From Macrostomum lignano (Eukaryota): DNA of 64,000 nucleotides. This document shows, piece after piece, positions 51,151 through 63,072 of this stretch. The notes beneath the pieces were generated by a model. It was not told the DNA's origin. It was given only the letters and a program-made list of their open reading frames with translations, and searched no databases. Position 1 is the stretch's first letter. The number at the start of each line of letters is the position of its first letter. A program made the position numbers and the translations under genes. Location of the stretch: NCBI GenBank assembly GCA_002269645.1, contig NIVC01000089.1, positions 248,001 to 312,000 of the forward strand. Direction: 5' to 3'.

Positions 51151-53455
51151 GCGACGACGGCACTAGTAGATATATACGCACTGTGAGTGGGATGGATACA
51201 AATCAGCGAACAATGGATAAATAATAAGCGGTCCCAGTGCGTGATAACGATTGTCTGGCGAGCGCCGGTAGACGCGAGCCATAGACAATCGTTGTCACGC
51301 ACTGCGACCGCTGAGTCTTTGCATTGTTTTTCTGTTTGACGATTCTACAGACAATGCATTGTTTGTAGTAATGGATTGTTCTGCATTAAAAATGTGAATA
51401 ATGATCGTCAAATTGCTAAACAATGGGGGTGTCAAATTACTCCAGAAAGGAAAAGCATTACAGAGCGACCATGTCTATGGCGGCTCGCACTGTTAGACCG
51501 CTAACGAGTGCTCAGTCTGCTTCTGAGCGAAAAAACCATGAGGAGTGCTGTGTAACTACTTAACGCGTGTAAAGTGGTCGATTTTTAGGCAGATTTTACG
51601 CAAAAACGCAAATTATACTACTATCTGAAAATGAAGTAAGTAGTATATGAAAACGTGATATATGTACACATAGCATACTTCTATATGTACTTGCATATGC
51701 ACAGTAACCCCCATCTATTCCCAATCCTATATGTACATTGTCTACTTCTATGTCTACATGTACATTAATCCCTATCTAATTTCCCCAATGTACCTCTATA
51801 TGTACACTGTATACTGTACTTGCATTTTAAACCCATATCTACTTCTAGGACAATTTCTATATGTACAGTGTCTACTTCTATGTATGTACATTAATCCCCA
51901 ATCTACACGACAGTCCCCAGCTGTATTTGAAACCCTCTATACAACAGCAGCCAGTTATGTACTGTACATTCTCTCTCTCTCTCTCTTGGAGTAGACGAAA
52001 ATTTCCTAGAGTTTTCCACAGTTTTTTAAATTTTACCATTAAAAGTTAACTTTTGTTGATCAAAATCAGTAAATTCATCACTGGAAACCATAATTTCAAC
52101 AGCTAATTTGTCCAAATGCCGTTTCAACTTTACTTGAGGCGGCTTCGAAGCAGGAATAAATCCCACACGGAAGTCCACCAGCCAGCCCAGCCCAAGAAAT
52201 GGTTAATTGATACTAAATTATTAGAAAGGCCATTTTTTCATAAAAAAAAGTTTTCCTCATTTTTCCGTTTTAACGTTATAAAATGCTTACTTTATGAATC
52301 GAAATCCGTCATTTATCAATAGAAATCATAATTTTAGCTAATAAATCATCACAAATGCTGTTTCATCATTCAAATAGGCATGTTTATTGCCCCCAAGAAG
52401 CTAGACACTAAAAATTGGGGCTAAAAACACAGTCTGCTATTAAACTTAAAGATTTCAGCATTTCAATCGATTTCGATTACTAAATCATGCCATTGATGAT
52501 ATTTTAAACGTTATTCTCAGTTCTGAAGCTCCTAACAGCCTCTTTTAGATGCACTGAATCGGTGTTGTTGCATACTTTGCATTTGAGTCACCTTTCAATT
52601 CAACGATTCCCCGCTATACATTCTAGCCATATTCAAAAGCCAGGACTATTAATCTTCGCCAATATGGAGAGGACAACACCTACCCCAGCCTCACCATGGT
52701 AATTCTTTACCACCGCTTAAATACCATAACTGACTCTCTGTCCCTATAACCCCAGGTGACAGGAAAGCATCCCCAAACATTACGTAAACAGAAGTAGAAA
52801 ACTCCGTCTCTCTGATTTGGCTTGCGACAGGGGATCTCCGTCACCTATATTACTCTTTGATGGATATTTTAGAAGACGGCAAGAGCTTTTCATCGACTAT
52901 TACTCTTCCCCGAGCCTCTGTCAATCAGATGCTTTGCACACAAGTCCCATTTCTCCCAGGTTATTAAATTGATACGCAATTTTGGACAACCATTCTCGCA
53001 AACAGAGACCGACAGGCCTTGAATAACTACAGAAAGTCTCTTTTATATTTTTCATCTCCATTTAGCTATCATGGTCCGCCAAGGTATTGTCTTTTGAATA
53101 AACACCGTTTTCTATCAGATTTAAGTCGAAAAGAAATGCTGCAAAAGGAAGCTGTCTTCTTATTCAAGAGACTGTACTCTGACGGAGCAGCAATTTTCCC
53201 TCCTGCGAGAATGCTGGTTGAGTGGCTCCACTCAGATCCAATAAAATACCGCATGAGAAAGGGTATTTTCGACCCCCAACTTTCTTCACCAAATGCGGAA
53301 CCGAGTGTACAATCGTACACCAATCTAGAAAATATAGACCCGGGGAAAGAAAATCACGCACACTTCTCGTGCCCCTTACCCCACCTTCCCTCTCGCGGGG
53401 TATATAAAGCGGGTGAGAGCTGCTGCTGCCGCATCAGCAAAAGCAGCCGGCAGCA

Positions 53456-53569
53456 GATGCCACAACAGCAGCATCACAGCTAGCAGCAGCAACAGCGAAG
53501 CAAAGGCCTACCAACGGATCACCCTTCCCGTGCGGGTGGCGTCGCGGGAAACCCGCGCCAATTGTTCCG
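53456..53569 (+). ncRNA. Candidate HDV-like self-cleaving ribozyme at the 5' end of the Ingi-like element
   Basis: Manual fold: P1 GAUGCCA (53456-62) / UGGCGUC (53537-43); P2 CGGAUCA / UGUUCCG (one mismatch); P3 CCC/GGG with loop UUCCCGUGC; P4 GCGGG-AAA-CCCGC; J4/2 GCCAA. Confidence 0.55.
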
Positions 53570-61001: not shown

Positions 61002-61208
61002 ATGTCAAATTTACATAAAATATTTTATGAAGAGGAACCAACTATACATCAAAGGTACATAAAACATTTTTGCCTTGTATGCGGTGAAATTGCCAATGTA
61101 AAAAGCAATTGTACATATTTTGCATGTCAGACTTGCTTAAAATCATTTATGAAAAGGAGACTATTGAAAAACAATGTAAAATTTTCTGTATATTCTATTG
61201 GCTGGTAA
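61002..61208 (+). CDS. Short ORF with a nuclear-receptor-like C4 zinc-finger motif (probable relic) inside the Polinton-like element
   Basis: CLVCGEIA-x10-CQTCLKSFMKRR resembles the first NR DNA-binding finger (CxVCGDxA...CxxCKxFFRR). The second finger is not intact. Confidence 0.35.
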   Translation: MSNLHKIFYEEEPTIHQRYIKHFCLVCGEIANVKSNCTYFACQTCLKSFMKRRLLKNNVKFSVYSIGW

Positions 61209-63072
61209 TGTTGTGCATCATCTATTTCTTGTAATATGCTACTGATTTTATCGATTTTGTAAATATATATTCCTTTCTCTTTACAATGCTGTTTGTACCG
61301 AACCATATCATTGAAGCCTTTCATTCTTGAGGGCTGGGGGATGACGCATGCAACGGATTGTACAGCCGGCGAGCGCACCCCACCTCTGCAATATACACTG
61401 TATACAGGTGTTTCGAGTAGGAAATTTTCGTTTACTCCAAGAGAGAGAGAGAATGTACATAACTGGCTGCTGTTGTATAGAGGGTTTCAAATACAGCTGG
61501 GGACTGTCGTGTAGATTGGGAATTAATGTACATATATAGAAGTAGACACTGTACATATAGAAATTGTCCTAGAAGTAGATATGGGTTTAAAATGCAAGTA
61601 CAGTATGCAGTGTACATATAGAGGTACATTGGGGAAATTAGATAGGGATTAATGTACATGTAGACATAGAAGTAGACAATGTACATATAGGATTGGGAAT
61701 AGACGGGGGTTAATGTACATATGCAAGTACATATAGAAGTATGCTATGTGTACATATATCACGTTTTCATATACTACTTACTTCATTTTCAGATAGTAGT
61801 ATAATTTGCGTTTTTTGCGTCAAATATGCCTGAAAATCGACCACTTTACACGCGTTAAGTAGTTGTGTATGCTAGAGGCTTCTAGAGGCTTAGTTGACAC
61901 AAATCATAAATTAAACTTGGAATAGCTTTCTCGAAATTATATTCATGTACTTCACAGCAGCTACATTTGTACCTTCACAGGGCGCATGTATGACAGCAGC
62001 TGTAGCTGAAACTGCAAAGCTGCAGGAAAGTCCAAATACATGGAGTTCTAATTTAAATGCTAGTTTAATACTGCATGGCTTTGGCTTCAAATGAATTCGA
62101 TATTTCTGTGAGTTTAGGTGACTTTATTAGTATTCAATAGGAGTGAGCTGGCGAAGTTTCCTTGGCTGTTTAAAGCACTAAATTTATAAAAGCTGCGTAT
62201 GGGCTGAGCCTACCACTCCAGATTCTCTCTATAGAACTCCCTGGCCGGCCGCCTCTTGCAGGACACGCAGGTCGCTAACGAATGCCCAGTTAATGAGCTG
62301 TAGAGCAGTCAACTTTCTACTGCTCGACAAAGTTTACAGTAACTCACTCCCTCACTCACTGTGCATCTCAGCCCACTCCAATCTTTTGTGTGTCATTTAG
62401 AAATTAAATATAAAAGGACCAATGGCTTGAGTTTGTTTGTGAGTGCACATTGTTGGCAATGGTCAAAACCTGCCAAGAGTTTGGGCAAAAGTTCTTTGTC
62501 TTGAGAACACACAATTCCGCATCAACTCGCCCTAGCAGTTATTCTTAGACAGTGATTTGTAAGAAAAACCGCATGTGTAATTTCGGTAATAAATAGGCAT
62601 ACAGGTACAGTCTTCTTTCCTGAAAGCAGTTTTTCCAAGGGCGTCATCGAAAGTCCAACCGAGAGAGAAAAATTTATTCAATTCTATGCAAAAATTAAAA
62701 ACAGTTTTGTCTTTTCGTACGATTGATTCCAATGCTTGATATGATCTGGGTCATGAAAGCAATCCAAGTTGACTCCAAGTTGGCTGCCTGCTCTGCAGCT
62801 TATTAATTGGGCACTCGTTAGCGACCGCGAGCTGCGGAGCTGCGCAGAGGGGGCTGCGGTCGGGCGTGTCCTGCAAGCGGCAGCCGGCCAGGGAGTTCCA
62901 TAGAGAGAATCTGGAGTGGATCTCAAGTGAAATTCGCCAGGATCTCATTAAGCACTCGTTAGCTGTCTAACAGTGCATGCCGCCGCAGAAAAAGCTTTTT
63001 CTTCCAAGAGTAATTTGGCTTCCCATTTGTTGGCTAATTCGCCCCCACCTGACAGAGCGTGAATGGTGTCAG

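Follow-up and report, generated by a model that had tools for sequence, protein, structure and literature searches.

The stretch of Macrostomum lignano DNA analysed here (64,000 nucleotides of contig NIVC01000089.1, assembly GCA_002269645.1; the window) harbors a Polinton-like element at 51549..61869. It is a dead copy from a family that is probably a Polinton derivative, self-replicating but dependent for integration on mobilisation in trans. Intact sisters measure ~9–10 kb and share a spliced pPolB as their constant gene. The feature in the window is a Polinton-like replicon, yet it falls outside the Polintons by the absence of an integrase and a capsid module, by its ends, and by the introns in its gene.

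The left terminal inverted repeat (TIR; 51555..52008, 454 bp, + strand) starts with ACTACTTA and aligns to the reverse complement of the right TIR (61418..61863, 446 bp, − strand, with AGTAGT at its + strand end) with 435 matches, 10 substitutions, and 3 indels. The target-site duplication (TSD) TGTGTA occupies 51549..51554 and 61864..61869 (6 bp each, + strand), as placed by the family-wide reading of ends. The boundaries proposed in an earlier note—TIRs of ~450 bp, a 6-bp TSD TGTGTA, and ACTACT...AGTAGT termini—are borne out by re-reading and alignment. A reading with an AACTACT end and a 4-bp TSD would fit the window by itself just as well. It is ruled out by the family ends: among 44 elements with both ends read, which were hand-picked from the end-match lists and from polymerase matches, 41 show an exact 6-bp TSD and two an exact 4-bp repeat, and the TIR reaches one base further outward in only 10. 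Near-identical TIR copies on C4420, C237, and C19 were rejected as independent insertions; they have the flanks of the window and, hence, represent the same insertion. An empty site with a single TGTGTA, which the earlier note had proposed to look for, gave no match at up to two mismatches.

Ends of the ACTAC type occur at least 353 times in the genome. Herein, the end pattern of subfamily A accounts for 170 matches (4 in the reversed control) and that of subfamily B for 183 (0 in the control). End pairing drew on 100 matches of each pattern and, among the matches listed, gave 33 A pairs with a median of 9,515 bp (seven above 11 kb) and 35 B pairs with a median of 8,901 bp (two above 11 kb). 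The TIRs of sisters reach up to ~1.3 kb. Of the 44 elements, those without an exact 6-bp TSD comprise one with a single mismatch and two with no TSD; simple repeats surround three of the 41 exact cases, and one site is common to two elements. The TSDs are of 42 distinct kinds, with a pyrimidine at position 3 in 33/44 and a purine at position 4 in 36/44. All 44 elements start with ACTAC, the end by which they had been chosen, and not with the 5'-AG(T) usual for Polintons. The proposal of a distinct, Polinton-derived family is borne out, and mobilisation by an integrase agrees with the 6-bp TSD, which is what such an enzyme would make.

The content of the family is reduced compared with what had been anticipated, i.e., full-length partners of 15–25 kb with matching ends. 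None was found: no integrase (80), ATPase (64), or capsid (30) match on the listed contigs lies inside the 68 end pairs, the integrase matches stemming from the best 150 of 1,726 candidates. In tblastn with the integrase, capsid, and ATPase of complete Polintons from the same genome as queries, 0/60 family loci matched, and the three control regions did; the sole integrase matches in these loci are nested Gypsy-type open reading frames (ORFs) at two of them. For an adenain-like protease, the ORFs scanned gave no Pfam match, and no protease query was made. Likewise, Pfam on 19 window ORFs gives pPolB fragments (below the cut-off) and domains of a long interspersed nuclear element (LINE) and no others, in agreement with the earlier statement that no integrase, capsid, ATPase, or protease ORF is recognisable there. 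Deletions in the window copy are not the cause of this absence, since intact, independent sisters of ~9–10 kb also have no integrase, capsid, or ATPase gene, the protease having had no query of its own.

Apart from pPolB, gene content varies among the intact members. Subfamily A1, nearest to the window, has a noncoding left arm; A2 adds PC4-like and dUTPase genes; and subfamily B, whose polymerase is 65% alike to that of A, has a PC4-like gene plus an acidic ORF. One sub-lineage (L042, L133, and L134 on C1176, C1263, and C157) carries PC4-like and dUTPase genes, and C1176 has both without a polymerase. A 912-aa ORF of L056 was discarded as a family gene because it belongs to a LINE. A segmented genome, in which the capsid genes would sit on ACTAC units of their own, was also considered and rejected: the capsid loci read are parts of complete Polintons that end in AGTAG and encode a polymerase themselves. 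At L043 (C1849, 1228–6440), two ACTAC left ends stand 5 kb apart in direct orientation and enclose two intronless-looking ORFs of Rac/Rho-family GTPases; this may reflect the capture of cargo or a duplication in tandem.

The polymerase is called as pPolB by PF03175 (E 1.4e-43 for P0195), and a profile of 22 homologs matches phi29 polymerase (E 1.6e-5). Profile positions 737–802 match the Vsr nuclease 1vsr with a weak, profile-level score (E 0.0085), and the homolog P0052 is named VSR protein by its source. By these sequence features, the family polymerase is classified as a group-2 (VSR-type) pPolB. The cysteine and histidine of what we take to be OTU-like motifs are invariant in alignment A2. 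The nearest proteins in the databases are gene models that carry the UniRef label Macrostomum lignano; outside relatives are 30–42% identical and, where named, labelled Nematostella, Apostichopus, and Nymphon. A distant group-2 query gave 66 matches (best 32 of 333 candidates), many at known places of the family, and the six new places that were read resemble subfamily B. In viral contigs, one polymerase query found no match, and alignment A2 found four loci (best 34%), of which the one examined, L135, carries several genes and is intronless.

The polymerase is under purifying selection. Its large exon is open in 13/13 independent copies tested, and the ratio of nonsynonymous to synonymous substitution rates (dN/dS) is 0.095 within A (28 pairs), 0.097 within B (10 pairs), and 0.10 between A and B (40 pairs, with dS saturated). 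The open exon and the dN/dS of ~0.10 therefore indicate that the polymerase was selected during spread without an adjoining integrase.

The polymerase reading in the earlier note had overlooked the spliceosomal introns, which are found here inside motifs A, B, and C. They measure 67–95 nt, at sites common to both subfamilies. The motif-A intron is present in 22/23 elements, the motif-B intron in 23/23 (with a GT donor in 21), and the motif-C intron in 8/12 elements of subfamily A and 10/10 of subfamily B. Two further GT-AG introns lie upstream in A, and another, first one is predicted. The 78-nt motif-C intron of sister L055 (joint 8451–8530, GT..AG) is skipped exactly in contigs of X1, X5, and X6, which are putative RNA runs from three studies, the RNA status being the guess of a tool and no run being catalogued outright as RNA; the joint is absent from the DNA-like run X10, whose cover is even. 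Pieces from X6 end at the motif-A and motif-B donors on L055. The public protein ALD16274.1, 97–99% like the B copies, is unbroken across all three motifs; the accessible text of PMC4490696 and PMC4604429 contains no statement of an mRNA basis for it. Introns at these sites would make an active polymerase strictly splicing-dependent.

The same genome is rich in complete Polintons, which have integrase, capsid, and ATPase genes. All four whose ends were read finish in AGTAG, with a 6-bp TSD in three. AGTAG and ACTAC differ only at positions 2 and 5, where G and C are exchanged, and the polymerase of the complete elements gives no tblastn match to that of the family. One complete Polinton of 17.8 kb with AGTAGT ends (L065 and L075 on C2696) also encodes an Eco47II-like nuclease, a protein with an F5/8 domain, and a primase-D5 helicase.

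Among 25 loci without polymerase, 23 are fold-back palindromes with the ACTAC ends of the family and arms of 1.6–4.8 kb, most of them flanked by direct 6-bp TSDs. Noncoding examples of 3.4–9.9 kb, with arms mostly 97–99.9% alike, are L085, L091–L094, L096–L103, and L121–L130. They resemble copy-back defective genomes. Assembly errors are an unlikely origin because the flanks are unrelated and the 6-bp TSDs direct in most palindromes; C1190, with mirrored flanks, is the exception. The center of one fold-back (L086 on C126, 4548–9275) holds ORFs of 769 aa (no Pfam match) and 542 aa (CIDE-N), probably a nested transposon. A further feature of the ends is a hypervariable sub-terminal block at positions 9–27 (window 51563–51581), which varies between almost all elements and mostly agrees between the two ends of one element. 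There are 39 distinct terminal 34-mers in the 44 elements, with both ends identical in 34. Within subfamily B, pairwise identity is 0.54 at positions 9–27 versus 0.98 at 28–60, and the block occurs in four-gamete combinations. This 19-bp block beside the presumed replication origin may act in origin specificity or as an escape tag.

In the mechanism that is proposed here, the propagating unit would be the linear element of ~9–10 kb with ACTAC ends and a group-2 pPolB as its constant gene. This gene would be expressed like a host gene, from a TATA box and with roughly six GT-AG introns, of which motifs A, B, and C each hold one. By analogy with Polinton and adenovirus biology, the pPolB would prime at the ACTAC ends and copy the element by strand displacement, pairing of the TIRs would keep both ends alike, and template switching would yield noncoding fold-backs that depend on the polymerase and an integrase. 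A retroviral-like integrase acting in trans would insert the element, and the complete Polintons of the same genome would be its simplest source.

Several points weigh against this mechanism. An integrase that acts on ACTAC ends is postulated, and the complete Polintons whose ends were read finish in AGTAG. The integrase evidence covers the best 150 of 1,726 candidates and the first 100 ends per pattern, and contents were read for three of the nine end pairs above 11 kb. Of the other six (C221, C485, C583, C694, C271, and C1090), the pair on C271 encloses a pPolB frame of 1,036 aa. Both a family of 357-aa integrases (on C10, C594, C416, and C251) and a 1,478-aa pPolB frame on C1704, with an integrase match 15 kb away, are known here from coordinates alone. 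A heavily spliced, divergent integrase in the left arm could escape tblastn. As for splicing, the motif-A and motif-B joints are not among the best 15 of 44, and the RNA status of X1, X5, and X6 is guessed.

The first rival explanation is a bipartite or helper system, in which an unseen ACTAC-ended partner gives the integrase and perhaps the capsid, as bidnavirus segments share ends. Candidates for this partner are a second segment, a complete Polinton of group 2, and an exogenous virus that the assembly does not contain. ACTAC differs from the ends of every complete Polinton inspected, two integrase-bearing families are known without their ends, one ACTAC right end on C251 lies 11 kb from an integrase match, and complete elements typically have PC4-like and dUTPase genes as accessories. 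Against such a partner, the 68 end pairs (for the matches listed) and the 60 loci are all empty of the Polinton genes sought, and the ACTAC elements read that have no pPolB are mostly noncoding palindromes. We regard a helper of this kind as unlikely, though it is the most serious of the rival explanations.

Far less probable is the view of the earlier note that these are ordinary, internally deleted, nonautonomous copies of a complete Polinton with the polymerase as a passenger. The window copy did lose ~1.5, 1.2, 1.2, and 0.2 kb relative to its sister, so internal deletion holds for this copy; it fails as the cause of the missing integrase, capsid, and ATPase. The family must also descend from a complete group-2 Polinton, the nearest outside proteins being 30–42% identical. 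However, one integrase-less layout recurs in two subfamilies that are 65% alike and at dozens of independent sites, the intron sites are common to both, and the view is largely refuted by the selection on the open large exon. Slightly more remote still is another insertion route, in which a host or long terminal repeat (LTR) retrotransposon integrase, or nicking by the VSR-like nuclease of the polymerase, gives the 6-bp duplication. The family combines a VSR-like domain with the lack of a known integrase, and Gypsy elements are present. Against this, LTR integrases act on TG...CA ends. VSR inserts also occur in the pPolB2 of complete Polintons (10.1101/2023.08.22.554363), and the fixed length of 6 bp fits Polintons (PMC8097293). 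Hence, the self-replicating derivative mobilised in trans is the preferred reading.

The window copy itself is strongly decayed. On the + strand, the left TIR is followed by the noncoding left arm (52009..53503), which is 87% identical to intact sister L055 at 1970–3496; ~1.5 kb of the left arm of this sister is gone just before 52009. A TATA-like GGGTATATAAAGC lies at 53398–53410 upstream of the pPolB gene. A nested, decayed LINE with PHD-like, endonuclease, and reverse transcriptase domains (53504..57597, +) stands in place of ~1.19 kb of the sister, i.e., the first pPolB exon as predicted and the greater part of intron 1, and no TSD was found around it. Inside the LINE lies an insert of ~370 bp (56022..56411, +) that resembles a short interspersed nuclear element (SINE), with a 10-bp TSD GACCGAATCT and an A-rich tail. 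It is shared with the element on C1396 (97%), and a further copy lies beside C2757; a tRNA origin was dismissed, as ARAGORN gives no tRNA.

The decayed group-2 pPolB gene (57598..60895, +) is ~85% identical to intact sisters and contains frameshifts and stops. Relative to L055, deletions have removed ~1.22 kb at 57980 and another 0.18 kb at 58601–58604, and a VSR-like motif lies at 58663–58689 (+). Four introns, all on the + strand, are placed in it: a predicted GT-AG intron of 82 nt in the N-terminal part (57688..57769), a GT-AG intron of 88 nt inside motif A (DV^VSLYP, 58987..59074), one of 75 nt inside motif B (LNS^LWGKF, 59631..59705) whose donor is decayed in this copy, and a GT-AG intron of 95 nt inside motif C (DTDS^VV, 59994..60088). 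The last pPolB exon is interrupted by a miniature inverted-repeat transposable element (60434..60830, unstranded) with 14-bp TIRs AGGGACTACTCAAA and a 10-bp TSD GCGTGCTGAC. Outside the element, inverted copies of a dispersed repeat of 1.1–1.2 kb, 99.5% alike, flank it at a distance (49945–51150 and 63073–64000, the latter continuing past the window). More copies occur just past the window, and the repeat is not part of the element. Positions 5300–48000 contain very dense minisatellite arrays with periods of 4–39 bp.

Compared with known systems, as described in the accessible portions of the sources cited, the family is close in design to the VSR-type pPolB2 Polintons of a marine nematode and a mollusc, a type defined by Jeong et al. 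(10.1101/2023.08.22.554363). Both have long TIRs, a 6-bp TSD, and a pPolB with a Cys-rich region and a VSR-like insert; the family differs by its 9–10 kb versus 13–25 kb, its GT-AG introns, its ACTAC ends, and the absence of any integrase, ATPase, or capsid gene in the searches above. Vertebrate Mavericks share the 6-bp TSD and a short terminal repeat; unlike the family, they are intronless, measure 12.7–24.6 kb, carry eight core ORFs, and end mainly in (AGT)2 or (AG)3, with an AC start known once, as (AC)3A in Monopterus albus (Barreat and Katzourakis, PMC8097293). Nematode Maverick core genes are likewise intronless (10.1101/2022.07.12.499685), and introners have been described inside dinoflagellate viral elements (PMC12166617). 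Concerted loss of capsid, ATPase, and protease is known from nine capsid-less Polintons (Krupovic et al. 2014, PMC4028283); the accessible text of that article mentions no integrase loss, selected polymerase-only families, or introns. Linear pPolB plasmids and bidnavirus segments are also TIR-bounded pPolB replicons without integrase, but, in what is accessible of PMC11161782 and PMC8502044, they are not described as multi-copy integrated elements with 6-bp TSDs. A terminal-protein domain is reported for Polinton pPolB (PMC11161782), and pPolB with TIRs and without integrase at 10 Caenorhabditis elegans loci was treated as remnants (PMC11414722). A literature search that for most matches stayed at the level of listings, and that did not cover supplements and Repbase, turned up no account of a Polinton family reduced to a spliced polymerase under selection.

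Polintons are defined by a polymerase and an integrase and described as intronless and virus-like. The family might represent a satellite class of Polintons, a proposal that we put forward tentatively and with slightly more doubt than confidence: self-replicating, capsid- and integrase-less, with host-style splicing, an integrase borrowed from unrelated complete Polintons, fold-back defective genomes of its own, and, adjacent to the origin, a 19-bp block that recombines and is specific to each element. Such families escape searches that insist on long ORFs or on a polymerase with an integrase close by. The family also offers natural end variants for studying what Polinton integrases and terminal proteins recognise. 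If the reading is true, a virus has been reduced in an animal to a two-helper transposon ecology that consists of complete Polintons, polymerase-only replicons, and noncoding fold-backs.

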